Below, piece after piece: positions 1 to 18,899 of a DNA stretch of 64,000 bases. The stretch lies in NCBI GenBank assembly GCA_036795215.1, contig DAIRFC010000004.1:4822-68821 (forward strand). Reading direction: 5' to 3'. The notes beneath the pieces were generated by a model, which was not told where the DNA came from, made no database searches, and saw only the letters and a program-made list of their open reading frames with translations. The DNA is from Actinomycetota bacterium (GTDB lineage Bacteria; Actinomycetota; Thermoleophilia; RBG-16-64-13). Numbering within the stretch: position 1 is the first letter of the stretch; every line of letters starts with the position of its first letter. Position numbers and translations under genes: made by a program.

Positions 1-53
1 CCCGTTTGCCACTCCGCGGTTGATTTCTACCTCCGAAACGTTGTCCGAGGCGG

Positions 54-1223
54 CTACCAGGGGATCATGACCGGCAGCCCCGGCAGAGCAGTGGTCATCC
101 ACCGGGTGCGCTCCGCACCGATGAAGTACATGTCTCCGACCATGCTGAACGGCGCCACATAGCCCGGGCAGCGGACCATGGGGTGCACGGCGTACACCTC
201 GTCGGCCTGGATGGTCCACTCCATGAAGTCCTTCTCGTGCGGTCCGGCCGTGATGTAGGGCGCATCCCCATACGACAGGCCCACGGCATGCCCGAGCTTG
301 TCGCACTCGAACCCGTACCGGGCGACCAGATCTTCGATCATCTTCCCGGCCGCGGTTATCTCCACTCCGGGGCGGAACTCCTCCTGGATCATTTGGCGCA
401 TATCGCCCCACAGCTGGAACATCTTCTGGTACGTCCCCTTGGGCTGCTCCCACCAGTAGGAACGGATCATCTGGGCGCCGTATCCCACCTGCATGGTGAA
501 TTCGGGCGAGAACGTGACCGGATCCGGCCGATCGATCACCGCGGGGCCGGGGAAGTTGGGATAGACCGCTTCCGGGCTGCTGTGGATCAAAACGATCCGG
601 TCGCCGACGCCGTGGGTATCGAGGACTTCCACTGCCGGGGCGACTGCCTCGGCCTGGGTCATGCCCGGCCGCAGATTGGCCAGGAACACATGATGGGCCA
701 TATCCGAGATCTGTATGGCCCTGTCGATCATCGTCAGCTCCTCGGCGCTCTTGCGACCGCGGATCTCGCCGAACAGGCGGTGGCTCTCGACCAGGTGGGT
801 CTGCGGGCAGGCTTCCTGAAAGATCTGATGATCCAGCACCGGCCACCAGCGGAAGCTGTCGATGCCTATCCGGCTGGACTGCAGGTTGAGGCTCACGACC
901 TGCCGGGCCGCTTCCGCCGCCATGTGAGGGGTCGCCACGATGTTCTCTTCCTTCACCCAGCAGCCCTGCCGGGCCACGTCGGCGGCCGAATCGATGCTGT
1001 TGCTGGGAATCAGGAACACAGGTTCTCCCTGCACCGGGAAGATCAGCATGTTCATGCGCGTGCCCCAGACGCTGGTCAGGTAGTGCACCGGCACCCCCAG
1101 CTGACTGCCGCCGTAGACGATGATCCCGGCCAGGTCCGCCTGCTCAAGCCTGTCCCGCAGCAAAGACCAGCGGCGGTCCTTCTCTTGGAGGCTGATCCGG
1201 GGTTGTTGGTCTTGTTCAGGCAT
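54..1223 (-). CDS. M24 family metallopeptidase (Xaa-Pro aminopeptidase/creatinase-like)
   Basis: 403-aa ORF has creatinase/prolidase-like N-domain and M24 'pita-bread' core (..CDKLGHAVGLSYGD..HE..). Start moved to internal ATG 1223 (MPEQDQQ), which has GGAGGAGG 5 nt upstream. Confidence 0.8.
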   Translation of the reverse strand: MPEQDQQPRISLQEKDRRWSLLRDRLEQADLAGIIVYGGSQLGVPVHYLTSVWGTRMNMLIFPVQGEPVFLIPSNSIDSAADVARQGCWVKEENIVATPHMAAEAARQVVSLNLQSSRIGIDSFRWWPVLDHQIFQEACPQTHLVESHRLFGEIRGRKSAEELTMIDRAIQISDMAHHVFLANLRPGMTQAEAVAPAVEVLDTHGVGDRIVLIHSSPEAVYPNFPGPAVIDRPDPVTFSPEFTMQVGYGAQMIRSYWWEQPKGTYQKMFQLWGDMRQMIQEEFRPGVEITAAGKMIEDLVARYGFECDKLGHAVGLSYGDAPYITAGPHEKDFMEWTIQADEVYAVHPMVRCPGYVAPFSMVGDMYFIGAERTRWMTTALPGLPVMIPW

Positions 1224-1261
1224 TCTTCCTCCTCCACACGAGGTGTCTGCCGGCTTGGATC

Positions 1262-2362
1262 TCAATCAAACGAACCTTGACAGTCTGGATCAGCCGGCTG
1301 GGGTTGAGTAGTCGGCGTGGGGGTGAGGTCGCCGGTGCGAAGTAGGAGGTTGTGCAGCATCAGGCAGGCCTCCGACCGGCTGGCGGCCTGCGTGAACCTG
1401 TAGTGTGTGCCCGGATACAGGCGGTCCATAAGACCAGCGTAGTATGCCTTGACGCCATTCGCGCGGTGTTCTTCGGTCGAGAAGAGGCCGCGCGGCCCGA
1501 AACGAGGGACGTATGAATCTGGTGCGGCCGGAAGGTCAGCCGCTCGCGCCAGCATGGTTATCAACTGCTCCCTGGTGGTGACGTCGTCGGGGGCGAAGCT
1601 CGTTGGCGTCTTTCCGACGGTGATGAGTCGCGCTGCGCAAACAGCGACATAGTTGTCGGGGTAGAGCGGGTCGGGGTACCCCCCGGTCTGCACATCGGTA
1701 AACGGGCACACGTCGTGCTCCGAAACCGGGTATCCGAGGGTCTTCACTATCAGTTTGGCCAGCTGCTGGCGCGTGAGAGAGGCGTTGGGACGGAAGCTCC
1801 CATCCGGGTAGCCGCTCAGAATGCCGCGAAAGGCCAGGTCGTTTATCTGATTCACATAGGGGTGCGAGGCGGGCACATCACTGAAAGTCGGGCGGTAGGC
1901 GGTGGTCGGAGTCGTGCTGCCCTTAGACGAGAACCAGAGAGAGATGGAGTAGCTCACGGGTATCTCGCAACCAGGTGCGGGTGCCACTTCCACTTGCCAT
2001 CTTCCGCTCTGCTCGACCTTGTGAGTGATATGAGCCGGTTCTCTGCTTGTGCCCAGAGAGTTGCCCCCTGCGTCACCAAAGGGAAGGCCAACCAGGCTTA
2101 CGTATACCTGTGACTCGCCCAGGGGAGTTACCCGGACCTCGATCACGTCACCCCACTGGCAATCGAAACCGTACGCGTGGCCGATCGGCTCGATCGATTC
2201 GGTGACGGAGTAGGGGGGATTCACCAGTGTGGTGGGTGGTGGGCTGAGCGTCGTCGCCTGTCCCTCGGCGGGGGCAAGCAGCAGCACTGCCGCTCCCGCG
2301 AGCAAGGCCAAGGCGAGCAGAATGAAGGTATGCCTGCTTTCGGCCAGTGCCAGTCTCCTCAT
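1262..2362 (-). CDS. secreted S-layer-homology (SLH) domain protein
   Basis: Internal start MRRLALAE.. is followed by a hydrophobic signal peptide. C-terminal SLH-like repeats (FSDVPASHPY..GYPDGSFRP..TRQQLAKLIV; CPFTDV..YPDNYVAVCAA..) are paralogous to three other genes in the window. Confidence 0.7.
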   Translation of the reverse strand: MRRLALAESRHTFILLALALLAGAAVLLLAPAEGQATTLSPPPTTLVNPPYSVTESIEPIGHAYGFDCQWGDVIEVRVTPLGESQVYVSLVGLPFGDAGGNSLGTSREPAHITHKVEQSGRWQVEVAPAPGCEIPVSYSISLWFSSKGSTTPTTAYRPTFSDVPASHPYVNQINDLAFRGILSGYPDGSFRPNASLTRQQLAKLIVKTLGYPVSEHDVCPFTDVQTGGYPDPLYPDNYVAVCAARLITVGKTPTSFAPDDVTTREQLITMLARAADLPAAPDSYVPRFGPRGLFSTEEHRANGVKAYYAGLMDRLYPGTHYRFTQAASRSEACLMLHNLLLRTGDLTPTPTTQPQPADPDCQGSFD

Positions 2363-2465
2363 TTCTGATCTCCCTTCAACATTCGTCGCAGCAGACCAAT
2401 GTACTAAAGACAGAGCTCTCGTGCTTTGGAAGCGGCGCGTGCAGGCAGGTGTGCGTGCATCGAAC

Positions 2466-2876
2466 TCAGCGAGTCGCGCGAGGCCGCTTCGCAGTGTGCG
2501 CCCTGATCCAGCCGGCCAGTGCGTCCTCGTCGAGGTCGCCGGACGCGAGTTCCACGATGGTGGTGACGACCTCGGCTTCGCTCGCGTTGAACGCAAGGCC
2601 ATTGAGCCCCAGGAAGACGGCCATGACCATGAACGCGACACGCTTATTGCCGTCGTTGTAGGGGTGATTTCGGGCGAGGCCGAATCCGTAGGCGGCTGCG
2701 AGTGCCGCCACGTCCACTTGAGGTTCGTAGGTAAAGCGCTGCCGTGGGCGAGCCAGTGCGGATTCGAGCCCATTCTCGTCTCGCAGGCCCGGCATTCCTC
2801 CGTGCGTGAGTAGCATGTCGGTTTGGATGGCGTCCACGACCAATCGGGACACCCAGCGAGGCTCGAGGTCAGACAT
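2466..2876 (-). CDS. doc: Doc (death-on-curing) family toxin, Fic-fold
   Basis: Carries the Fic/Doc motif HPYNDGNKRVAF. The 136-aa size and an upstream partner gene ending 3 nt before its ATG fit a toxin-antitoxin pair. Confidence 0.8.
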   Translation of the reverse strand: MSDLEPRWVSRLVVDAIQTDMLLTHGGMPGLRDENGLESALARPRQRFTYEPQVDVAALAAAYGFGLARNHPYNDGNKRVAFMVMAVFLGLNGLAFNASEAEVVTTIVELASGDLDEDALAGWIRAHTAKRPRATR

Positions 2877-2879
2877 GAC

Positions 2880-3107
2880 CTACTTGGCGAGCTCGCGAAG
2901 CGCGTGGCGGTATGTGCGACCTACCTCCGCGGCGATAGAGAGGGCCTCTTCGGTCTCGGGGTCATATGGCGTGAGGAGTATCCCGCGGTCTGTCTCAATG
3001 GCCATCACGGTGTCGCCGGCAGCGAGCTTCAACCTGTCGGCCATGTCCTTGGGCAGGGTGGCGGCGATGGAGCCACCCGCTTTGCGCAGCTTGACGCCCT
3101 GGGTCAT
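2880..3107 (-). CDS. AbrB/MazE-fold antitoxin of the Phd/Doc pair
   Basis: SpoVT/AbrB-like swapped-hairpin signature VKLRKAGGSIAATLPKDMADRLKLAAGDTV. Internal ATG 3107 is preceded by GGAGG. The gene lies immediately upstream of doc. Confidence 0.7.
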   Translation of the reverse strand: MTQGVKLRKAGGSIAATLPKDMADRLKLAAGDTVMAIETDRGILLTPYDPETEEALSIAAEVGRTYRHALRELAK

Positions 3108-3269
3108 CTCTTCCTCCGGCGGTATGGGTTCATGACCAGGGTAGCACATATGTGCTACCTCGCCCAAGAGCTATGATAGGCCAACTTCTCGGGAACCGGC
3201 AATTCACTGGTTGTCGCCAGGGATGTCGCCAGAAGGATCGCAGCGAGACAGATCTCCATTCCGACCTCG

Positions 3270-3842
3270 ATGGACAAGGAGACCGTAGAGATCGACGCCG
3301 ACATGCCGGGAATCGTCTTACCGGCTTGCTACACGAGAATGCCCAGGATCGTCGAAGGCTTTGTCGGCAGAGTGACTCATCTGGAATCCAACTACATCCA
3401 CGATGCTGATGCCCTGCCTCCCTTTCTGCAGAAAAGGATGCTCCGCAGATGGGAGAAGAGAGCGGACAGGATCGCCGACTACGTGCTCAGCCATAGGACT
3501 GGTCGGATGGAGACATGCGGTGGTCTGATGGCGCTCCTGTTCTCGAGAGGTATCGAGAAACGGTACCTTCAAGGCGCGCTGAGTCCGGATATCGACGAGA
3601 ACCTCTGGACAGACGACAAGTGCAACGGATGCGCCATCTGCGCAGAGGTCTGCCCGGTCGGCAACATCGCGATGGTTGGCGATAGACCCAGCTGGCAGCA
3701 CCGGTGCGAGAAGTGCCTGAGGTGTATCCAATGGTGCCCAAAGGAGGCGATACAGTTCAAGGATGCGACGCTGGGACGAAAGAGGTATCGGCATCCGGAC
3801 GTGAAGCTGTCGGAGATGCTGAGGCGGGGTGCTGGTTCCTAG
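3270..3842 (+). CDS. 4Fe-4S dicluster domain protein (EFR1-like ferredoxin C-terminal region; possibly N-terminally truncated)
   Basis: Two CxxCxxC..CP motifs at the C-terminus (CNGCAICAEVCP, CEKCLRCIQWCP). No flavodoxin-like N-domain is present. The stop codon abuts a copy of the tRNA-Ser 3' end. Confidence 0.5.
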   Translation: MDKETVEIDADMPGIVLPACYTRMPRIVEGFVGRVTHLESNYIHDADALPPFLQKRMLRRWEKRADRIADYVLSHRTGRMETCGGLMALLFSRGIEKRYLQGALSPDIDENLWTDDKCNGCAICAEVCPVGNIAMVGDRPSWQHRCEKCLRCIQWCPKEAIQFKDATLGRKRYRHPDVKLSEMLRRGAGS

Positions 3843-4020
3843 CCGAGGGGGGGATTCGCGCATCTTGCTTCGCAAGCTGCCGTCCTCGCCTCGCCGTCCG
3901 GCTCGGCTCAGACCGCTCGCTGCTCGACAGTCCAAAGGGACTGTCTCGCTGACGCTCGCGCCCTCGCGGGTTCGGAATCCCCCCCAGACCCTGCTGGCAG
4001 CCATTTCTTGGTTTCATGCG

Positions 4021-4109
4021 GGAAACCCTACGGAGAGGGGGGGATTCGAACCCCCGGGACCGCTTGCGCGGCCCAACGGTTTTCGAGACCGCCGCATTCA
4101 ACCGCTCTG
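4021..4109 (-). tRNA. tRNA-Ser (anticodon CGA), class II with long variable arm
   Basis: Reverse complement folds as GGAGAGG-TG-GCAG..AGCGGTTGAA..anticodon loop CTCGAAA..long variable arm..GGTTCGAATCCCCCC-CCTCTCC-G. No encoded CCA. Confidence 0.85.
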
Positions 4110-4513
4110 CCACCTCTCCCTATCGACTCGGTTCAGAATGAAGCCGCGGCCGCCGAGTCTCCGCATTGAGCGGCACGATGCTACGTCCTCAGTCGCGTCC
4201 GTAGCGCTGCTACGCCCGTTCCTTGCGTCCTTGCCTCGCGCTTGCTCACTGCACCCTGGCGGCGAACCTTCATTCTAACCCGAGTCCTCTGGCGCGTCTG
4301 GCGAGGTCTTCCCGGGGAGCCCCGCGCAGCGCAACGAGGATTGTAGCCGATGGGGCCCTGCCCTGACAGGCACTGCTCCCGGGCGGCCCGTGTCGATAAG
4401 CGGATTCTCATCGCTCGCTCATGCTCGCCTCATGACACGCGGGTAGATTGCCCTCAGTGGAACGGTTCTGACGGTATGCGCCTGAGGGCGCAGGCTTTGA
4501 AAGGAGTAGCGAA

Positions 4514-5095
4514 ATGAAACCAAGATGGAAGTTGATCGTCTTCGGCGTTCTCGTGGTCGTGATCGTTGCGACGATGGCGGGCGTGGCCCTGGCCGGCAGA
4601 GGCCCGGGTGGAGAGCAGCCGGCGGGGGCAACGATGGCCAGAACGACCAGTGTGATGCCTCTGAGTTCCGAAGAGGCAGCTGAGTTGATCTACATGCGTG
4701 AAGAGGAGAAGCTCGCGCGCGATGTGTATCTGGTTCTCTACGAGAAGTGGGAGGTCGACGAGTTCGAGAACATCGCCACCTCCGAAAGCCGCCACATGGC
4801 AAGCGTGAAAAGACTGCTCGACCGGTATGGACTTGCCGATCCGGTGGGCGCGGATGCGCCCGGTGTCTTTGCCAACACCGACCTACAGGCGGCCTACGAC
4901 TCCCTGGTGGCCCAAGGCCTGCAGTCACTCGAAGACGCTTTCGAGGTGGGTGTAGCCATCGAGAAGCTGGACATCGCCGATCTCAAGGAGCTCATCGCCA
5001 TAAGCACGCACCGGGACGTGACTAGGGTGGCCGAGAACCTGCTACGGGGCTCGGAGAGGCACCTCGCGGCTTTCAAGAAGCTTCTGGAACAGTAA
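4514..5095 (+). CDS. DUF2202 ferritin-like domain protein with N-terminal signal/TM segment
   Basis: AAGGAG RBS upstream. N-terminal hydrophobic segment. Ferritin-like four-helix pattern with E..ESRH motifs (EEKLARDVY..ESRHMASVKRL). Confidence 0.65.
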   Translation: MKPRWKLIVFGVLVVVIVATMAGVALAGRGPGGEQPAGATMARTTSVMPLSSEEAAELIYMREEEKLARDVYLVLYEKWEVDEFENIATSESRHMASVKRLLDRYGLADPVGADAPGVFANTDLQAAYDSLVAQGLQSLEDAFEVGVAIEKLDIADLKELIAISTHRDVTRVAENLLRGSERHLAAFKKLLEQ

Positions 5096-5208
5096 CGGTG
5101 CGCGGATAGCTCCGGGTAGCAGATCGAATGGAACGGACGGGCGCTCCCAGCGGGAGCGCCCGTCCGGCGTTCGTCGTCAGACGGGCGTTCATCGTCAGAC
5201 GGGCGGCG

Positions 5209-6066
5209 TCATCCACCCAGTGCCGCTCTCAACCCCTCCTTGAACGGGGTGGTCGGGCGGCCGATGAGCCTGGAGAGGTCGCCGCTCGTCTCACCGAGCA
5301 GCCCCGCGGCGATGTTGGCGTCCAACGCAGCCGCGAACTCCGCGCCCGGTCCTGGGACACCCGCGCCGGTGAGGATCTCGATCAGGGCGGCGCCGTCCAC
5401 CGGTTGGTAGGTGATGGGCTTGCCGAGCAGCTCGGTGAGTGCGGCCGCCAACTCGTTGAAGTCCCAGGCGTAGTCGCCGGACAGCTCGTAGACCTTGCCC
5501 TCATGACCGTCGCCCAGCAGTACCGTGGCTGCCGCCGCCGCGTAGTCGGCGCGGCCGGCACTCGCCACCCGGCCGTCACCCGCCGCGGCGACGATGGTGC
5601 CGGTCTGCTTGGCGGTCTCGGCCGTGCGGACGTAGTTCTCGGTGTACCAGCCGTCGCGCAGGACGGTGTACGGCAGGCCGGAGGCGGCCAGATACTCCTC
5701 GGTAGCCTTGTGCTCGGGCGCGAGGACCAGCGCCGACGTCGTCGCCTTGGGGGCGCTGGTATAGATGAGGTGCTTCACCCCTGCAGACTTGGCCGCGTCG
5801 ATCACGTTCTTGTGCTGCGGGATGCGCTTGCCCACCTCACTGCCCGAGACGAGCAGCACCTTGTCGACGCCGCTTAGAGCCGCCTCGAGCGCGGGAGGGT
5901 CGTCGTAGGAGGCCACCCGCACCTGCGGGCCGCGCGCCGCAAGATCGGCAGCCTTCTCCGCGTCACGCACCACGGCCACGATTTTCTCGGGGGGTTGGGT
6001 CTTGAGGAGTTCCTCAACGACAAGGCGGCCAAGCTTGCCGGTCGCCCCGGTCACTGCGTAGTTCAT
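5209..6066 (-). CDS. NAD(P)H-binding NmrA/SDR-like oxidoreductase
   Basis: N-terminal Rossmann motif VTGATGKLG. Full-length similarity to the NmrA/YtfG quinone-oxidoreductase-2 family. Confidence 0.75.
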   Translation of the reverse strand: MNYAVTGATGKLGRLVVEELLKTQPPEKIVAVVRDAEKAADLAARGPQVRVASYDDPPALEAALSGVDKVLLVSGSEVGKRIPQHKNVIDAAKSAGVKHLIYTSAPKATTSALVLAPEHKATEEYLAASGLPYTVLRDGWYTENYVRTAETAKQTGTIVAAAGDGRVASAGRADYAAAAATVLLGDGHEGKVYELSGDYAWDFNELAAALTELLGKPITYQPVDGAALIEILTGAGVPGPGAEFAAALDANIAAGLLGETSGDLSRLIGRPTTPFKEGLRAALGG

Positions 6067-6124
6067 CTCGCCTCCCTCTCGCGATGTGTCACAGCGCTGT
6101 CGCGGCGGATTGTAGCCGAGTCAG

Positions 6125-6364
6125 GTGCGCGCCGGCATGGCGTACGCCCGCGTTCAGCTGACGGCCCAGAGTATGGGGCTCGCGGTGCAGCCGCTCAGCC
6201 AGATCCTCGAGGAATATCCGGAGATGGCGTCGCTCTACACCCAGGTCCACGCCGAGTACGCGCCGAACGGCGAGACCATCCAGATGCTGGTGCGGGTCGG
6301 CAGGCCCACCCAGGAGGTGCCGCGCAGCATGCGCCGCGATGCGGCCGACCTGCTCATGGAGTAG
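6125..6364 (+). pseudogene. C-terminal fragment of a nitroreductase-family (Acg-like) gene
   Basis: Only about 79 codons, resembling the C-terminal tail of large nitroreductase-family proteins (..TIQMLVRVGRPTQEVP..). No upstream N-terminal coding region; the space upstream is occupied by the divergent SDR gene. Confidence 0.4.
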
Positions 6365-6375
6365 GGCCGCCGCCG

Positions 6376-6972
6376 TCAGGCTCGTGGGAAACAGCGCGCG
6401 GTCATCTCGCCGGCTTCCCTCAGCCACTCGGCTCTCTGCTCGGGGGTGCTGGTGATGATGACTCCGAACATCCGGCGGTAGAACTCATTGACGCCGCACG
6501 AGACGAACATGTTGTTCTTCCAGAGCGATTCCAAGGGATCGCCGTAGAGGCTCGTCTCTCGCTCCACCGGCGTGTTCGACGTGTTCAGCACGAGGACGGC
6601 CCGCGCCTTGAGGAGCCCGATGAGCTCCCCGTCGCCCTGGTCGCCTTCGGCGAAGGTGTAGGCCACTCCCGGACGCAACACCCGATCCACCCAGCCCTTG
6701 AGGATGGCAGGCGGCTGTCCCCACCAATTGGGATGCACGATCACGATGCCCTCGGCGGCGGCGATCTCGGCGCAGTGCTTCCGGACGATCCGCGGCAGCT
6801 CCACATCCCTCGGGATCTCCCGAGCGGGCAGGATGGCGGGGAACCTCTCCTTGTAGAGGTCGTGGAACGCCACCTCGTGCCCGTTGGCTTGGAGCGCGTC
6901 CACCGCGGCGGCCGCGAGTGCATGATTGAAGCTCCCCGAATCGGGATGCGCAAGAATGACCGTTGCTCTCAT
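6376..6972 (-). CDS. flavodoxin-like fold NAD(P)H-dependent oxidoreductase (NQO1/Flavodoxin_2 family)
   Basis: MRATVILAHPDSGSFNHALA.. N-terminus and the overall pattern are typical of NAD(P)H dehydrogenase (quinone) / flavodoxin-like proteins. Confidence 0.75.
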   Translation of the reverse strand: MRATVILAHPDSGSFNHALAAAAVDALQANGHEVAFHDLYKERFPAILPAREIPRDVELPRIVRKHCAEIAAAEGIVIVHPNWWGQPPAILKGWVDRVLRPGVAYTFAEGDQGDGELIGLLKARAVLVLNTSNTPVERETSLYGDPLESLWKNNMFVSCGVNEFYRRMFGVIITSTPEQRAEWLREAGEMTARCFPRA

Positions 6973-7204
6973 GGTTCCCCCTGGGCCGCGGCGCCCCTCG
7001 TGGTTTGACTCGCCGGCGGTGCCGACTCCACAAGTATGGCAGACGGGTGGGTGCCGGTCCTTTGGCGAACAGGTTGGTCTCCCTCGAGAACGCCTTTAGG
7101 GTCGGAACCGCGATCGAGAAGAACGACAAGTCCACCCACCCTCTTGCGCCTGAGTACAACGAAGGTCGCAGAGCAATGCATTCGAGCCCGTCTATGCTCA
7201 AAGC

Positions 7205-7462
7205 ATGGAAGAACGACTCATACTTGGGATCCACGCTATGGAGGTCCTCGAGCAGCGCGAGATCAGGCTTGAGTGGGTGGCTCGTGTGCTCGCAGAGCCT
7301 CTATTGGTCCGAGACGACCCCAAGGACCCTTCCCTTGTCCAGGCGTTTGGTCGCATCAGGGAACGAGACGGAAGGGTCTTGAGGGTTGTGTATACTCAAA
7401 ATGAAGGTTCGATCTACTTGGTTACGGTGTTCTTCGACCGGTCCATGAAGGGGAAGCTGTGA
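7205..7462 (+). CDS. DUF4258 domain protein (putative toxin of a DUF4258/DUF2283 pair)
   Basis: HAMEVLEQREIRLEWVARVL matches the DUF4258 HA.ER..ERGI signature. Its stop overlaps the next start by GTGA. Confidence 0.6.
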   Translation: MEERLILGIHAMEVLEQREIRLEWVARVLAEPLLVRDDPKDPSLVQAFGRIRERDGRVLRVVYTQNEGSIYLVTVFFDRSMKGKL

Positions 7463-7659
7463 GAGTGACCTTCGATCAAGAGGCTGACGCCCTTTACGTG
7501 CGCTTGGACAAGTCCCACATCGTCGAGACGGAAGAAGTACGCCCGGGTGTGATGCTCGATTTTGACGAGCGGGGCGAGGTCGTGGGTCTGGAAGTCCTTC
7601 GTGCCGGGGAGAGGCTGTCCATCTCGGAACTCAAGCACATGGACTTTGAGTTGCTCTAG
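7459..7659 (+). CDS. DUF2283 domain protein (putative antitoxin partner)
   Basis: 66 aa with the DUF2283 signature (YDQEADALYVRL...E). Translationally coupled to the DUF4258 gene by a GTGA overlap. Confidence 0.6.
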   Translation: MRVTFDQEADALYVRLDKSHIVETEEVRPGVMLDFDERGEVVGLEVLRAGERLSISELKHMDFELL

Positions 7660-7864
7660 CCTGCGCGCTGCGTGTCCGGCCCACCCATGAGGGCCACTCT
7701 CCACCCAAAGTCCCTGTGAGCCGGCCTCCGGTCACCGTTATGCTCGCGTAGCTTCGCGGGCGACCAACCCCCGCCGGTCTTGACCTACATGGCCGCCGGC
7801 AGAAGACACAGTGAGGGTGTATCATGGAACCAATATGGTTGCAAAATGGTTTGGAGGCGGTAGT

Positions 7865-8108
7865 GCCGACCACACTCACACTCAAGAACATCCCCGATGA
7901 CGTGTACGAGCGACTGAAGGCGGCCGCGGCAGCACACCGCCGCAGTCTGAACAGTGAGGCCATCGTCTGCCTGGAAACTGTGCTGAAGCCGGTCAGGGTG
8001 AGCCCAGGTGAGCGCCTCGAACGCGTCAGACGGTTGCGCGCTGAACTGGAAGGGGTGGAGTTCCTCGCCGACGACATCGATGCCATGAAGCGTTGGGGGC
8101 GGCCGTGA
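7865..8108 (+). CDS. vapB: VapB/FitA-like ribbon-helix-helix antitoxin
   Basis: Start moved to GTG 7865 (GGAGG 5 nt upstream), giving an N-terminus (M)PTTLTLKNIPDDVYERLKAAAAAHRRSLNSEAI typical of RHH antitoxins. Overlaps the vapC start by GTGA. Confidence 0.75.
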
Positions 8109-8491
8109 TCGTGGTCGACACGAATGTGCTCGCGTACCTGTTTCTACCAAGCCAACACACACCGGCCGCCGAGTCGTTGCTCGAGCAGGACCCGGAGTGG
8201 GCAGCGCCAGTGCTGTGGCGGAGCGAATTCCGCAACGTGCTGGCTGGGGGCGTTCGGCGGGGCGACCTCGCTCTGGAGGAGGCCTGTCGTCTGCAGGCTG
8301 AGGCCGAGGACCACATGAGCGGCAACGAGTACGACGTGGATTCGATGCGGGTGCTGACGCTCGCGCACGAGAGCGGGTGCTCCGCGTATGACTGCGAGTA
8401 CGTTGCCTTGGCCATCACCCTGGGTACCAAGTTGGTCACGTGCGACAGGCAGGTGCTGAGCGCTTTTCCGGGGGTCGCGGTCGCACTCTAG
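8105..8491 (+). CDS. vapC: PIN-domain VapC toxin
   Basis: VIVVDTNVLAY.. N-terminus with conserved acidic residues (D..E..D..D) of the PIN fold. 4-bp GTGA overlap with vapB. Confidence 0.8.
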   Translation: MIVVDTNVLAYLFLPSQHTPAAESLLEQDPEWAAPVLWRSEFRNVLAGGVRRGDLALEEACRLQAEAEDHMSGNEYDVDSMRVLTLAHESGCSAYDCEYVALAITLGTKLVTCDRQVLSAFPGVAVAL

Positions 8492-8965
8492 CTAGTGCGC
8501 GTGCCCGGCGCGACCCGCGTGGCCGCTGCCGCGGCCATTCTCGCGAAGCTGCCCGGGCGGTAGATCGCAACTGCTGCTGGCGCACTCGCCTCCGGTCATC
8601 TCCAGTTCCAGCGTGACGTGGCCGATGCCGAAGCCGCGCGCCAAGGTCTCTTTGACCGCGGCCACGACTGATCCGGTCTGCGACAGAGCGGCGTCCTTGA
8701 CCTCGACGTGGGCCGAGAGGGCCAGGTCGCTCGACGAGATCGACCAGATATGCAGGTCGTGCACGCCCTCGACTCCCGGGATTGCCGGCATGGCATTCTT
8801 CACGTCGGCGAACTCCGTCACCTCCGGCGTTCCCTCCATGAGCACGTTCACTGTGCTTTGGACTATGGCGAACGCCTCCCGGCCGATCCACAGGGAGACG
8901 AGGATGGAGACGATCGCATCCGCGTAGCTCCAATCCCAGAGATAGACGTCAAGCCCGCTGAGCAT
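8492..8965 (-). pseudogene. truncated cation diffusion facilitator (CDF/CzcD-like) gene: only last TM helix plus cytoplasmic C-terminal domain
   Basis: The ORF covers only ..WSYADAIVSILVSLWI..MEGTPE..PGVEGVHDLHIWSISS..HVEV.. plus a His-rich tail, i.e. TM6 plus the C-terminal domain of a roughly 300-aa CDF. A TM-like stretch (IANLVLNLLI) sits upstream in a different frame, and no N-terminal region follows. Confidence 0.55.
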
Positions 8966-9095
8966 GACTCCGAAGCTGGTGTGATGAGCAGGTTGAGAAC
9001 GAGATTGGCTATCAGGCGCCTATCGGGCTCGAAGCCGCGGCCACGGTGGGGGTCGAGGGGCTCGAAGCCACGATCGTGGTCGGCAGCCGAACTCA

Positions 9096-10073
9096 TCACG
9101 CGATGACGATCTCCTCGCCGGCCTTCAACGTCCGGTAGCGCTCGCCGAGCGCTTCCTTGAAGACTCCAAGGCTCCAGTCGCAGCTGTCGTGGGCCGAGAG
9201 CGCCACCAGACTTAGATCGAGACCGGCCAGGAGCGCCGCGGCCGCGCGGGCCTCTTCCCGAGTGATGCGCTGCCAGGGCAGCTTCCCATTGCCGATGATG
9301 TTCTGCCCGCCTTTTCCCACCCGCGAGCCCGTGACGGGGAAGTGCAGCCCACCCACCACTGCGTAGAGCGGAAGACCTGTGACCGCGCGGGCCCGCTCGA
9401 TCATGCGCGATAAGGATGGATGTCCGCAACCCACGATCAGCACCACGCCCTTGCCGGCCACATTGACGAGCAGGTTCTGCTCGAACACGGGGCCACTCAG
9501 CCAGATGGCCCGCATCAGCGGGCCGCTGCTGGCTACGCCCGGCGCCAGCCGGCGCGGCGACTTGATGACCGTCACCCGCCCCGTGGGATAGGCAAGCGGC
9601 GGCGGCAGGAAGATCCGGACACCCTCTAGATCGACGGGCCGCGCCGAGAGGGTGAATGTCTTGTTGGCCTGGGCCTCGCGGCCGCCCACGTGGTCCAGAT
9701 GGCCATGGGAGATGAAGAGCTCATCTATCTCGTCCAGCGACACCCCCAGGATCTTCATGTTGCGCAGGAGGGGTGAGGGGTGCTCGTTCCGCACGTTCCA
9801 GCCGACGTCGAAGAGCAGTCTCTCGTCGTCGAAGGTCACCAGATAGGAGACGCCCGCCTCCGTCGCCAGACCTTCTACGGCGGAGTAGTACTCCACCAAG
9901 GGGAGGATGGAGAGGCGGGTGACGGCGCCAAGACCGGTGATGGCCGAGGGTCGCTCCGTCGCCCACAGCCGGTCGGCCTGTCGTTTGTCGCGCCAGAACT
10001 CAAGGACGGTGTTCGGCCGGGCCATCCCCGAAGCGGCCCAGTAAGCGGCGTATTTCTTCTCGGTGAGCGACAT
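9096..10073 (-). CDS. MBL-fold metallo-hydrolase
   Basis: HxHxDH motif (SHGHLDHVGG). GAGGTG RBS 5 nt before ATG 10073. Confidence 0.8.
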   Translation of the reverse strand: MSLTEKKYAAYWAASGMARPNTVLEFWRDKRQADRLWATERPSAITGLGAVTRLSILPLVEYYSAVEGLATEAGVSYLVTFDDERLLFDVGWNVRNEHPSPLLRNMKILGVSLDEIDELFISHGHLDHVGGREAQANKTFTLSARPVDLEGVRIFLPPPLAYPTGRVTVIKSPRRLAPGVASSGPLMRAIWLSGPVFEQNLLVNVAGKGVVLIVGCGHPSLSRMIERARAVTGLPLYAVVGGLHFPVTGSRVGKGGQNIIGNGKLPWQRITREEARAAAALLAGLDLSLVALSAHDSCDWSLGVFKEALGERYRTLKAGEEIVIA

Positions 10074-10104
10074 CTTTCACCTCGTCTCTGCTACACGGTG
10101 GAGG

Positions 10105-10584
10105 TCACAAGGGTTCCCTTTCCCGGCGTACTGAGAAGAACTGTCGGAGCAACTCGGAGGCTTCGCTTGCCATGACCCCCGCGCGGACCTCAGGATGATG
10201 GTTGAGCGCGGGATGCTCGACGATGTTGAAGATGCTGCCGGCCGCTCCGGCCTTGGGATCGTCGGCCCCGTACACCAGCCTCTTGATCCGTGCCAGCACG
10301 ATGGCGCCGGCGCACATGGCACAGGGCTCCAGGGTGACGTAGAGGGTGGCTTCTCTCAGGCGCCAACCTCCAGCGATAGCCGCCGCGTCGCGCAGCGCGA
10401 GCATTTCAGCGTGGGCGGTGGGGTCGTGTCGGCGTTCGCGTTCGTTGCCGCGGGAGGAGAGGATCGTCCCGTCGATCACCACCAGGGCGCCGACCGGGAC
10501 TTCGCCCTGGGCGGCGGCCCTCCGTGCCTCGTCAAGGGCCAGTGCCATCAGGCGGTGGTCGTCGCTCTCTGAAGAGAAGGCCAC
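10105..10584 (-). CDS. tadA: tRNA adenosine(34) deaminase TadA
   Basis: CMP/dCMP deaminase zinc motifs HAEMLAL and PCAMCAGA. TadA-like N-terminus (..EGEVPVGA). GTG start with GAGAGGA RBS. Confidence 0.9.
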   Translation of the reverse strand: MAFSSESDDHRLMALALDEARRAAAQGEVPVGALVVIDGTILSSRGNERERRHDPTAHAEMLALRDAAAIAGGWRLREATLYVTLEPCAMCAGAIVLARIKRLVYGADDPKAGAAGSIFNIVEHPALNHHPEVRAGVMASEASELLRQFFSVRREREPL

Positions 10585-10726
10585 GGCTCGTTCCTCTCAT
10601 CCAAGTGGTCCTCTCCATTCTACAAGGACGCGCCATCGAGGTAAGTCGCGTGGACGGAGCGGTCCGACAGCGCCGGGACTTTGCTGCCCCGGCCTTGCTG
10701 CCGCGGCTCTTTGTTCCGGAGGCGCC

Positions 10727-10945
10727 CTAGGCCCGCGGGGTGCGCACCTCGCTCATGGTGCCGTCGGAATAGAGGATGTGTAGACCCCGCACCGTGTCCT
10801 CCCGGATATCCAGGTAGATGGCCCTGACGCCGTCTTGGGGCGCTCCGAACTCTATCTCCTGCCTTGTGACCGAGAACTTGCGGAAGGCCACATATCCGAC
10901 GGCCGCCATGAGTATCACGACGCTGACGATGGCCGGCATTATCAT
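10727..10945 (-). CDS. small membrane protein (hypothetical, 72 aa)
   Basis: Internal ATG 10945 (MIMPAIVSVVILMAAVGYVAF..) with GGGAGGGG RBS, one TM helix. The rest of the 200-aa ORF lacks support. Confidence 0.35.
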   Translation of the reverse strand: MIMPAIVSVVILMAAVGYVAFRKFSVTRQEIEFGAPQDGVRAIYLDIREDTVRGLHILYSDGTMSEVRTPRA

Positions 10946-11095
10946 CGAACCCCTCCCGTACTCGTTATCTTGTTGCGACAGTGAGCATAGCGGGCGCACC
11001 GGACAGGAAACCGCACTCTTGACGCCGGCGGCCCGGCGCTGGTAGGTTGCGGCTAGGGTTATCTCTTCGCAACCACTCTCCTCCGGGGGTCGACC

Positions 11096-11728
11096 ATGGC
11101 TCATATCGATTTCACCGACAACTACGAAGACCTCTCGACCGAAAGCGGATACCAGTTCAAGTTCATGTGCGAGCGATGCGGCAACGGCTACATGTCCAGC
11201 TGGAAGGCCAGCAAGAGCGGTATGGCCACCGGGTTGCTCAGGGGCGCCGGTAGTCTGCTGGGGGGTTTCCTGGGGAGCGCCGCCGACAGCGCCGATGACC
11301 TGCGAGATTTGGTGCAAGGCCCCGCCCACGATCGGGCTCTACAGGAGGCCGTTGCTGAGATACGGCCGCTCTTCGTGCAGTGCAAGCGATGTGGTCAATG
11401 GGTGTGTCGCGAGGTCTGCTGGAACGCCGAGAGAGGGCTCTGCACGGAGTGTGCGCCCATCACGCAACGGGAGATCGGCTCCATGCAGGCCCACTACACC
11501 GTAGAGCAGGCCGGGGAGAAGCTCCGTGAGCAGGATCTCACGGCCGGTCTCAACCTGACTGCCAAGGCGGTCGTCATTTGTCCCGCATGCGGAACGGAGA
11601 ACGATGGGGGCAAGTTCTGCCAGGAGTGCGGCGCATCCCTGCTGCCAACGATCGAATGTCCGCGTTGCGGGGCCCAGCTCAAAGCGCGCGCGAAATTCTG
11701 TCCAGAGTGCGGGAACAAGCTGGTCTGA
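11096..11728 (+). CDS. multi-zinc-ribbon domain protein (hypothetical)
   Basis: Four CxxC-containing modules, including two classical zinc ribbons at the C-terminus (CPACG..CQECG; CPRCG..CPECG). No enzymatic domain recognised. Confidence 0.65.
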   Translation: MAHIDFTDNYEDLSTESGYQFKFMCERCGNGYMSSWKASKSGMATGLLRGAGSLLGGFLGSAADSADDLRDLVQGPAHDRALQEAVAEIRPLFVQCKRCGQWVCREVCWNAERGLCTECAPITQREIGSMQAHYTVEQAGEKLREQDLTAGLNLTAKAVVICPACGTENDGGKFCQECGASLLPTIECPRCGAQLKARAKFCPECGNKLV

Positions 11729-12930
11729 TGACCCGAAAAGCCCGCTACAGTCTCGAGGGACGTTCCGGTCAGGCGGAGTGGTCGTTCGATGGGTCGTATC
11801 TCGGCCTGGTACCCGACGCCGGGCCTCCCATGTCGTTCTCGGTCCCTGAGTTCACGGGTATCGCGGGCGACGACTACACTATCGCGCTCACTGTGGCAGG
11901 GGCAGCGCCGGAAGGCAAGCTGGTGCTCTCTCACCTCGGGGCGGACGGACCGACGCTCCTCGACGGGCTGCGGCGGGCCTGGTTACCCGCCCGCGCACAG
12001 GTCCTCCGCCTGAGCGGATCCGGGGAGGGTAGGCCCTTCTCGGGGCAGGTGGCAGGGCTCGAGGGGCGGCCGCCCGAACCCTTTCGGGGCCTACTTTTTG
12101 AGGAAGTGCTCGTGGTGGCCCGCGATGGGTTCGATCTGGATCCTCTCTTTCTGGCCCTCTTCGGGAGCGTGGAACACGACGAGTCCACCTATACCGTCAG
12201 GGTGCGGCAGTGGCCGGGTGAGCAGGTGGTGTTCTCGAAGATGGCGGGGCAGACCGACGAGTTTGCGAGATGGTTGCAGACCAATAGAGCAGAGTTGGCC
12301 GAGGAGTCGGCGGCGATCTTGGCCGCGGGGGCGCCGACGCTGCCGTTGGGTCCGAGAGGCATGCTCGCGGGGATGTGGCTGCCGGGACGGCTTATGGAGC
12401 TCGAGGCCATGGAGGCCGTGTGCCCGGGCGTCATCGAAGCCTTCCGGGGTGCGTGGCTTGCGAGCCTGCCCCGGCATGATGAAGGCGAACACCTGCTGGG
12501 GTGGGCGGCCGGCGGTTCGACGTGGGTGGGTTGCACACGCGGGTCGGGCGGCGGCGCACAGGATGGGGCCACCGCGGGGACCGCTCCGGGCGCGGGCGCG
12601 GAAGGTCACCTATGGCTTCTCTGCGGCAAGAACGGCGTGTGGTTCTTGGAAGCGTTGTCCATCGAAGACCGGGCCACGTACTGCTTCACCGGCGGTGAAG
12701 AGGTGCCGGCGCTGGTTTCACGGCTCCTTTGCGCGCCTCAGTTCTCTCGCGAGGCCCTGTACAGCCCGCTTGCCGAGCTGACCGGGGAGAGCGCCGATCT
12801 CGCGATCGCGGCTCAGGCCCTGGACTTCTTGGTGGAACTACGGCGCCGCTTCAAAGACCGGGTGATCCATCAGACCACAGAAGGCTGGAAACGAGACGTC
12901 GGAAGACTCGGCGACGACGCGCGAATTTGA
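11728..12930 (+). CDS. hypothetical protein (400 aa), translationally coupled to zinc-ribbon gene
   Basis: ATG 11728 overlaps the upstream stop (TGATG). No recognisable domain. Coding-like codon usage over the whole length. Followed by a bidirectional terminator. Confidence 0.55.
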   Translation: MTRKARYSLEGRSGQAEWSFDGSYLGLVPDAGPPMSFSVPEFTGIAGDDYTIALTVAGAAPEGKLVLSHLGADGPTLLDGLRRAWLPARAQVLRLSGSGEGRPFSGQVAGLEGRPPEPFRGLLFEEVLVVARDGFDLDPLFLALFGSVEHDESTYTVRVRQWPGEQVVFSKMAGQTDEFARWLQTNRAELAEESAAILAAGAPTLPLGPRGMLAGMWLPGRLMELEAMEAVCPGVIEAFRGAWLASLPRHDEGEHLLGWAAGGSTWVGCTRGSGGGAQDGATAGTAPGAGAEGHLWLLCGKNGVWFLEALSIEDRATYCFTGGEEVPALVSRLLCAPQFSREALYSPLAELTGESADLAIAAQALDFLVELRRRFKDRVIHQTTEGWKRDVGRLGDDARI

Positions 12931-12995
12931 CAGTGGGCGCCCGGGGGAGCCCCTTCGCCCCCGGCACTGAGAGGTAGCGACGCGCCCTTGCAGAC

Positions 12996-13027
12996 AAAAA
13001 GCGAGCCCCGAGCGAACTCGCTTTGCG
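12996..13027. terminator. bidirectional rho-independent terminator between convergent genes
   Basis: AAAAAGCGAG-CCCCGAGCGAA-CTCGCTTTG: a GC stem flanked by an A-tract on one side and a T-tract on the other. Lies between the hypothetical gene (+) and carB (-). Confidence 0.55.
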
Positions 13028-18695: not shown

Positions 18696-18697
18696 AG

Positions 18698-18771
18698 CGC
18701 GCCTGACGCGACTCGAACGCGTGACCTTTGGTTTCGTAGACCAACGCTCTATCCAACTGAGCTACAGGCGC
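18698..18771 (-). tRNA. tRNA-Arg (anticodon ACG)
   Basis: Reverse complement GCGCCTG-TA-GCTCAGTTGGATAGAGC-GTTGGTCTACGAAACCAAA(ACG loop)-GGTCACGCGTTCGAGTCGCGTC-CAGGCGC-G. Confidence 0.85.
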
Positions 18772-18808
18772 ATATTTCAGTCCGCCGACCCAGTCCCGGC
18801 AGCCCGAG

Positions 18809-18899
18809 CGGAGAAGGAGGGATTCGAACCCTCGGAAGGAGCATTCACTCCTTCACTCGCTTAGCAGGCGAGCGCCTTCAGCCTCTCGGCCACTTCTCC
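18809..18899 (-). tRNA. tRNA-Ser (anticodon GCT), class II
   Basis: Reverse complement GGAGAAG-TG-GCCGAGAGGCTGAAGGC..CTGCTAA loop..long variable arm..GGTTCGAATCCCTC-CTTCTCC-G. Confidence 0.85.

Follow-up and report, generated by a model that had tools for sequence, protein, structure and literature searches.

Does a tRNA gene that lies amid toxin-antitoxin (TA) modules and gene fragments mark the remains of one degraded island, or can such a patch be put together and taken apart piece by piece? The question is raised by a 64,000-nt stretch of contig DAIRFC010000004.1 from the assembly of an uncultured actinobacterium (GCA_036795215.1), hereafter the window, in which positions 2466-9100 hold three intact TA pairs, a tRNA-Ser(CGA) gene and three broken genes, encoding a CDF metal-efflux protein, a ferredoxin and a nitroreductase, with no integrase gene. 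This inventory had been proposed from the sequence alone (the original prediction) and was confirmed by the open reading frame (ORF) listing, tRNA search and Pfam and NCBIfam profile scans on which our gene map is based. The same prediction took the whole of 2466-9000 for one eroded integration hot spot. We consider it likely that the patch is instead a mosaic, with the TadA-MBL-CDF operon and tRNA-Ser(CGA) as its fixed anchors; an integration site was found on the 3' side of the tRNA, whereas the single island extending over the whole region was not borne out.

All coordinates are those of the window, strands are as given, and L-numbers denote comparison loci or contigs. More than 20 contigs, taken from independent metagenome assemblies of ENA and JGI, encode MBL and M24 proteins identical to those of the window and have the same gene order and the same lesions. 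The closest named relative is the Thermoleophilia metagenome-assembled genome (MAG) GCA_016929985.1 (locus L011), with an MBL protein 86% identical. In an MBL-alignment scan of genome contigs with the pattern HxHxDHVGG, the best relative among the matches listed was only 50% identical.

A core operon gene dying in place

The gene order TadA-MBL-CDF is kept in five relatives (L011, L012, L013, L014 and L065), where the CDF gene is full length (319-333 aa, PF01545 and PF16916) and its start often overlaps the MBL stop codon, indicating translational coupling. In the window, the ATG at 9096 still overlaps the MBL stop (TGATG) and opens a frame for the N-terminal tail and the start of the first transmembrane helix (TM1). 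The remnant consists of 37 N-terminal codons, a deletion junction at the 17-mer 8981-8997, and then TM6 and the cytoplasmic domain in another frame. The latter are encoded by an ORF at 8492-8965 (157 aa) that matches PF16916 and only positions 157-282 of the 285 of TIGR01297; a profile scan of this ORF did not find the PF01545 membrane domain. The predicted reduction to the last TM helix and the C-terminal domain is therefore correct: part of TM1 through TM5, including HxxxD, has been deleted, which leaves a pseudogene rather than a CDF transporter. Its interpretation as a fragment of lost cargo failed. As a conserved operon partner of MBL in five relatives, the CDF gene is not cargo and is best read as a core gene that was inactivated in place. 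The prediction had itself named intact genes in the same order in relatives as the finding that would speak against decay, and such an arrangement was found for the CDF gene only.

The same species carries a second, longer allele. Contigs L004 and L010 (plus three similar places) encode an identical MBL protein and contain 366 extra bp, which encode TM1-TM4, with an exact copy of CTCAACCTGCTCATCAC on either side; this 17-mer occurs once in the window (8981-8997), and the intact CDF gene of L011 also has a single copy, the one in TM1. The long allele is dead as well. Its match to the L011 protein is split between two frames, one with aa 1-156 and the other with aa 169-329, and 35 nt encoding RSAFLHLVGDA, the HxxxD metal site of TM5, are replaced by 7 nt, which makes the TM5 site identical to the TM1 17-mer. 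Each of the two alleles was seen in several assemblies.

A parsimonious history of the CDF gene has two steps. A templated replacement of 35 nt by 7 nt, probably through template switching, would have destroyed the TM5 metal site and created the 17-nt direct repeat, and a 366-nt deletion between the new repeats, by slippage or template switching, would then have given the window allele. We infer this order, from the long to the short allele, from their shared junction. Deletion between short direct repeats, by slipped-strand or microhomology-mediated events, is a known route to pseudogenes, and bacterial genomes have a deletional bias. The 366-nt CDF deletion between exact 17-nt repeats resembles such cases, as does a 123-nt deletion between 10/11-nt repeats in the ferredoxin gene (see below). 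The CDF gene differs from them in that its 17-nt repeat did not pre-exist but would have been made by templated copying of TM1 into TM5, and in that both stages are still present in one population. The coexistence of two successive alleles, the first lesion enabling the second, gives an unusually direct view of stepwise gene loss and is the most instructive detail of the locus.

The 12-mer GGGCTCGAAGCC occurs twice in the CDF remnant, at 9025 and 9058 (0.02 expected by chance). The original prediction had noted this duplication, with the first copy at 9024, and an attachment-site (att) remnant was considered for it. Both copies encode GFEP and lie inside an imperfect 33-nt tandem repeat (9025-9083) of the CDF N-terminal tail, which varies between relatives. 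The att candidate was rejected, the 12-mer being coding sequence of the CDF N-terminal remnant.

A further locus (L064 1203-2695) has the CDF gene directly after TadA and lacks the MBL gene that separates the two in every other relative.

Integration on the 3' side of tRNA-Ser(CGA)

The second anchor, tRNA-Ser(CGA), is syntenic with TadA-MBL-CDF in L012, L013 and L014. Its 3' part recurs as a direct repeat downstream of the gene in the relatives L013 (27 and 37 nt), L014 (31 nt) and L027 (47 nt). Repeats of this kind are a hallmark of integrase-mediated insertion and indicate that integrases have used this tRNA repeatedly in the lineage. In contrast to these clear 27-47-nt repeats, the window has a 14-nt exact repeat and a distal candidate with 15/18 matches. 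The former is a copy of the tRNA 3' end (3845-3858, identical to 4035-4048) at a distance of 190 nt from the tRNA, with the ferredoxin stop codon 2 nt away; two exact copies compare with 0.08 expected, and the equivalent position in L063 holds a perfect 18/18 copy. The latter, at 2206-2223, was not supported as a distal att site: it is part of the SLH gene, and other stretches of the window match as well or better by chance.

Sister strains differ from the window at this very site. Contigs L006 and L008, from the same species, match the window only down to 3836 and then encode a tyrosine recombinase (PF00589). In the extension L029, this gene carries an in-frame stop and a frameshift and is thus a pseudogene; it is of a catalytic-domain-only type of ~190 aa. 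In related MAGs, the family is found mostly as fragments (94 + 73 aa and 123 aa; L026 3804-4376 and L027 10001-10372), and the L027 fragment lies 5 kb downstream of tRNA-Ser(CGA) with its 47-nt att repeat. A tblastn search of the 64-kb window found no recombinase of this family, and the genes called within ~10 kb on either side gave no integrase Pfam match. The proposed check for integrase or att remnants was thus positive for an att-like copy and for a recombinase pseudogene in sister strains, but not for an integrase in the window.

On the other side, contigs covering the M24 and SLH genes stop at 2531-2577, and two contigs of one megahit assembly (L003 and L022) overlap by exactly 141 nt (2437-2577). 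The other haplotype boundary is placed inside Doc because the contigs of the M24/SLH side end there. The strain-variable segment is therefore ~2578-3836 (~1.3 kb) and comprises the ferredoxin pseudogene and the antitoxin-Doc genes; relatives also differ 3' of the tRNA. As in an island, 2578-3858 lies directly 3' of the tRNA and varies in presence between strains, whereas 4120-8491 does not lie on that side and an integrase is not encoded in the window.

In L006, the tRNA 3' half, with its variable arm, and the spacer are of the L012 type, as expected if the integrating element supplied that half. Within the species, the tRNA-Ser(CGA) variable arm occurs in two compensatory versions, GGGCCGCGCAAGCGGTCCC and GTGCTCGCAAGAGCACC (L006 15955-16041 compared with L001 and L008). 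The version GTGCTCGCAAGAGCACC is identical to the variable arm of L012, and L008 looks like a recombinant between two spacer types.

Actinobacterial elements of the pSAM2/SLP1 type use a tyrosine recombinase and an att identity segment over the 3' part of a tRNA. The present site resembles them in the position of the integration 3' of the tRNA, the direct repeats (27-47 nt in relatives, 14 nt here), the tyrosine recombinase beside the att site in sister strains, the strain-variable content and the exchange of the L006 tRNA 3' half for a variant identical to that of L012. It differs in that the window has no integrase, recognisable distal att site, or transfer or replication genes, the remnant spans no more than ~1.3-1.6 kb, and the sister-strain recombinase is itself a catalytic-domain-only pseudogene. 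The 3' side would accordingly represent a classical tyrosine-recombinase site, of which a 172-nt arm, a 14-nt scar and the 1.3-kb strain-variable segment would remain in the window, while sister strains carry a decayed integrase at the same 14-nt scar.

The ferredoxin pseudogene

Within the strain-variable segment, the EFR1-family gene is represented by an ORF (3270-3842, 190 aa) that matches NF038196 only at positions 113-242 of 242. Positions 1-112 are unmatched, as expected from the predicted absence of the N-terminal domain. The gene was not truncated at its 5' end, however: it keeps its start codon and has internal deletions. Intact homologues have 261-270 aa. Protein and DNA alignments with the closest of them (P0130 of locus L063, 266 aa, ~92% DNA identity) place the ancestral ATG at 3173, followed by an 11-nt deletion at codons 3-7 that shifts the frame, with stop codons at 3174-3179. 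The second lesion is a 123-nt in-frame deletion (41 aa of the flavodoxin-like domain) at 3389/3390 between CCAA(A/C)TACAT repeats. The 2x[4Fe-4S] domain is intact; the product lacks the combination of a flavodoxin-like domain and 2x[4Fe-4S] in ~242-270 aa that defines EFR1.

The ferredoxin and antitoxin genes are divergent neighbours, 64 nt apart. Truncation of the ferredoxin gene by insertion of the MazE-Doc module was considered and rejected, because the ferredoxin start codon is still there, 64 nt from the antitoxin start. In L063, a perfect 18-nt core and 60 nt of the spacer adjoin an intact ferredoxin gene in an otherwise unrelated context, which ties the ferredoxin to the mobile arm.

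Gains and losses on the 5' side of the tRNA

The DUF2202 gene is the ancestral divergent neighbour of the tRNA. Its ortholog abuts the intact CDF gene in L065, so that window positions 5096-8491 are extra DNA relative to that locus. In L011, the CDF gene is followed by VapC-VapB-DUF2283-DUF4258. In L013, where the first 8 codons of DUF2202 and its upstream region are conserved, DUF2283 is followed by a 55-aa fusion ORF (4603-4770) that begins with the DUF2202 N-terminus (MKPRWKLI) and continues with the C-terminal half of DUF4258. Its sequence reads as the signature of a deletion that would have removed everything between DUF2202 and DUF4258. Taken together, the contents of L065, L011 and L013 indicate that modules have repeatedly been gained and lost in the gap on which CDF and DUF2202 converge, and, as VapBC and DUF4258/DUF2283 are common to the window and L011, some of these gains predate their split. 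These two modules are unlike the cargo of a tRNA island, since they lie 5' of the tRNA, where tRNA-targeting integrases do not insert.

The nitroreductase gene of this gap was predicted to be a C-terminal fragment and is indeed a true 3' stub, with the last ~80 of ~390 codons. It matches the C-termini of ~380-410-aa proteins, has an in-frame stop upstream and covers only the last 74 positions (246-319 of 319) of the Acg-family profile NF047509, where an Acg-family (Rv3131-like) nitroreductase would have its full ~320-400 aa. The NmrA-like gene sits where the 5' part should be, and tblastn found no other nitroreductase remnant in the window. In L064, a 266-aa nitroreductase, 81% identical over the stub, is directly convergent to the intact CDF gene; with a copy of the same family beside CDF there, the gene may be an old resident of the neighbourhood rather than cargo.

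On the 5' side, the CDF-DUF2202 gap would thus have accrued VapBC, DUF4258/DUF2283, the flavodoxin-like reductase, the nitroreductase and the NmrA-like gene by events not involving att sites. Resident and acquired genes alike would have been removed through small deletions between short direct repeats, with ~80% of the nitroreductase lost.

Toxin-antitoxin modules

The first module was predicted to be a Phd/Doc pair with a coupling overlap. The Doc toxin was confirmed; its partner is of the AbrB/MazE type ('doc_partner') rather than Phd, and lies upstream across a 3-nt gap rather than an overlap. Doc is intact (136 aa; PF02661, E=4e-16; TIGR01550 positions 18-121 of 122), and its translation contains the Fic motif HPYNDGNKR, in which Y replaces the F of the expected HxFx(D/N)(A/G)NKR. 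Its first ~99 codons (2578-2876) fall in the strain-variable segment. The antitoxin has 75 aa (TIGR02609 positions 2-74 of 74, and PF04014) and is called with the same length in independent assemblies. By its domains and motif, this pair of Doc and a small upstream antitoxin in the same operon would be a type II TA module. Upstream of the operon, a promoter scan found the promoter-like site TTGCCG-18-TATCAT (3202-3173), and between this site and the antitoxin start lies the perfect 20-nt palindrome GGTAGCACATATGTGCTACC (3139-3158). The palindrome is a likely operator, and the spacer between antitoxin and ferredoxin is probably the autoregulated promoter of the antitoxin-Doc operon.

In the other two modules, the predicted coupling overlaps are present and amount to 4 nt each. 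The DUF4258 and DUF2283 genes both encode full-length domains, and the pair is conserved in L011 and L013, where DUF2283 occupies the same position and is 91% and 61% identical, respectively. DUF4258 is a putative BECR-fold toxin and DUF2283 its putative cognate antitoxin. The DUF4258 family has been placed among BECR-fold toxins, with an antitoxin/toxin (A/T) order and an activity given as unknown in the survey literature (PMC11980606; bioRxiv 10.64898/2026.08.28.747851). These papers do not characterise a pairing of DUF4258 with DUF2283. As an observation on a single-MAG contig, the L011 DUF4258 is split over two overlapping frames (6093-6346, residues 1-47 and 39-85) next to an intact DUF2283, which could be pseudogenisation of the toxin or an error of that contig. 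The third pair combines a PIN domain, with the acidic residues D9, E45, D100 and D118 read from the translation, and an overlapping upstream ribbon-helix-helix antitoxin, features that identify it as a predicted VapBC module; its L011 orthologs are 77% (VapB) and 69% (VapC) identical.

The modules share domain content, small gene size, antitoxin-toxin coupling, clustering in variable regions and purifying selection with chromosomal type II TA systems, as well as, upstream of the Doc operon, an operator-like palindrome. They differ in the AbrB-type rather than Phd partner of Doc and in the toxin-first order of DUF4258 and DUF2283.

The claim that TA genes were retained while their neighbours decayed was supported by ratios of nonsynonymous to synonymous substitution rates (dN/dS). 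Between the window and L011, these were 0.10 for VapB, 0.23 for VapC and 0.12 for DUF2283, compared with 0.135 for MBL and 0.08 for TadA as anchor genes. The C-terminal part of CDF gave 0.24 in the same comparison, and the ferredoxin 0.35-0.51 against L063. These values suggest that purifying selection preserves the TA genes much as it does core genes, amid decaying neighbours, and that selection on the ferredoxin appears relaxed, the latter from small counts. The TA modules, presumably active, stay intact most plausibly because their loss would be counter-selected (addiction) or because they have defence value.

Alternative explanations

The reading of the original prediction, in which one old element over ~2466-9000 entered at the tRNA and lost its integrase and cargo, with the CDF, nitroreductase and ferredoxin fragments as leftovers, does have a basis in the density of TA modules, the three broken genes, the tRNA inside an integrase-free region and the fact that this tRNA is a real integration site in the lineage. 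We regard it as quite improbable: it is contradicted for CDF by the operon conserved in five relatives, VapBC and DUF2283 stand at the same place in the sister species L011, the tRNA lies in mid-region with att-type repeats on its 3' side only, and the 12-mer once listed beside the CDF fragment is coding sequence. It is extremely improbable that the broken genes are sequencing, assembly or annotation artefacts, despite the metagenomic source and the intact CDF genes in the same order in relatives. Identical lesions come from different samples, assemblers and centres, both CDF alleles were assembled several times, and the recurrence of the lesions across more than 20 contigs of independent assemblies excludes sequencing and annotation errors.

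Less improbable, though still unlikely, is that two of the shortened products retain a function, for example as a metal-binding domain (the 157 aa of CDF with TM6) and a ferredoxin (190 aa) that each act on their own. Both ORFs are open, start with ATG and were predicted as genes in all assemblies, the ferredoxin retains its two CxxCxxCxxxCP motifs, the dN/dS values are below 1 (0.24 and 0.35 for the C-terminal parts of CDF and ferredoxin), and ferredoxin homologues of 176 and 211 aa are also in the database. Yet a dN/dS value measured against a distant relative is dominated by the period that preceded inactivation, and the CDF lesions are polymorphic in the population, which makes them recent. 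The start of the CDF ORF is an internal Met, out of frame with the native MBL-coupled start, and two stop codons follow the native start of the ferredoxin.

Several observations weigh against the mosaic that we prefer. The spacer, which brings in another copy of the core, departs from the simplest attL/attR scheme, the mosaic gives no account of the ~92% identity of this spacer to L012, and no distal att border (attR) of the 3'-side segment was found in the window. The recombinase haplotype was recovered only ~1 kb past the repeat, including ~670 nt added by a metagenome contig scan. On the 5' side, no att repeats or recombinase are associated with the genes and no insertion mechanism was identified. 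The comparison of GC skew and codon composition suggested by the original prediction gave no clear foreign signal: GC content, third-position GC content (GC3) and skew were unremarkable, and the GC3 of the patch (0.66-0.94) brackets that of the flanking genes. Finally, the comparisons rest on short metagenomic contigs from six relatives.

With the mosaic as the preferred reading, the locus is a strain-variable region of an ordinary, well-known kind and no new kind of system. Its value is that of a clean, documented example in which true remnants of an island decay next to old residents and a gene of a core operon, so that a tRNA amid TA modules and gene fragments need not mean one degraded island. 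For annotation, the CDF, ferredoxin and nitroreductase ORFs should be flagged as pseudogenes, and the 3' flank of tRNA-Ser(CGA) marked as a strain-variable integration site.

Structured non-coding sequences beside the tRNA

Two structured pieces border the tRNA. The 172-nt spacer on its 3' side (3859-4030) has an RNA fold z of -3.1, ends in the second copy of the tRNA 3' end and is ~92% identical to L012 13141-13295, whereas the L012 MBL protein is only 72% identical. The insert on the other side (4124-4286) has terminal inverted repeats (4125-4143 and 4268-4286) and folds into a long hairpin (z = -4.7). It separates the mature tRNA from its conserved promoter block, is present in all conspecific contigs and is absent from L012 and L013. 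The promoter-like site of the tRNA is CTGTCA-18-TACAAT at 4369-4340 (TACAAT at 4345-4340). The insert may be an element resembling miniature inverted-repeat transposable elements (MITE-like) that lengthens the tRNA leader to ~215 nt. No copies of either piece were found elsewhere in the window or in non-conspecific loci, except for the spacer in L012 and L063. An Rfam scan of positions 1-13000 identified the tRNA alone, with sub-threshold sX4 and psbI-rps4 matches overlapping the tRNA itself. It is an improbable idea that spacer and hairpin insert are small, non-autonomous mobile elements that exploit integration at tRNA-Ser or influence how the tRNA is expressed; if so, they would represent, in Thermoleophilia-like actinobacteria, an undescribed class of miniature elements associated with tRNA genes.

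Gene content of the region

Features of the tRNA-Ser(CGA) region and its flanks, in window coordinates
Feature	Position	Strand	Profile or remark
M24 peptidase	54-1223	-	
SLH protein	1262-2362	-	
Doc toxin	2466-2876	-	PF02661, TIGR01550
AbrB/MazE-type 'doc_partner' antitoxin	2880-3107	-	TIGR02609, PF04014
Putative regulatory region of antitoxin-Doc operon	3139-3202	-	palindrome and promoter-like site
EFR1-family flavodoxin-ferredoxin pseudogene	3173-3842, ORF 3270-3842	+	NF038196
att-like direct repeat	3845-3858	-	14-nt copy of tRNA-Ser 3' end
Hairpin-rich spacer, 172 nt	3859-4030	-	tRNA 3' end to att-like repeat
tRNA-Ser(CGA)	4031-4119	-	ARAGORN; Rfam RF00005, 57.7 bits
MITE-like insert, ~160 nt	4124-4286	-	19-nt terminal inverted repeats
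DUF2202 (ferritin-like) protein, intact	4514-5095	+	PF09968, E=4e-47
NmrA-like NAD(P)-binding protein, intact	5209-6066	-	PF13460, PF05368
Acg-family nitroreductase 3' stub	6116-6364, ORF 6125-6364	+	NF047509
Flavodoxin_2 / NAD(P)H-dependent FMN reductase-like protein, intact	6376-6972	-	PF02525, E=4e-32
DUF4258 protein, intact	7205-7462	+	PF14076 positions 4-70/71
DUF2283 protein	7459-7659	+	PF10049 positions 1-48/49
VapB (FitA-like ribbon-helix-helix)	7824-8108	+	PF22513
VapC, PIN domain	8105-8491 (alternative TTG start 8093)	+	PF01850 positions 1-113/120
CDF metal-efflux pseudogene	8492-9096; C-terminal ORF 8492-8965	-	TIGR01297, PF16916
MBL-fold hydrolase	9096-10073	-	conserved anchor, upstream operon partner of CDF gene
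TadA	10105-10584	-	

The DUF2202 and NmrA genes converge on a perfect inverted repeat (5134-5166; 15 nt, 3-nt loop) that, although it lacks a T-run, probably acts as a bidirectional terminator. Farther along the window, ~8 kb past tadA, lies a pair of tRNA genes, tRNA-Arg(ACG) and tRNA-Ser(GCT), at 18697-18899; tRNA-Arg(ACG) is the known substrate of TadA.

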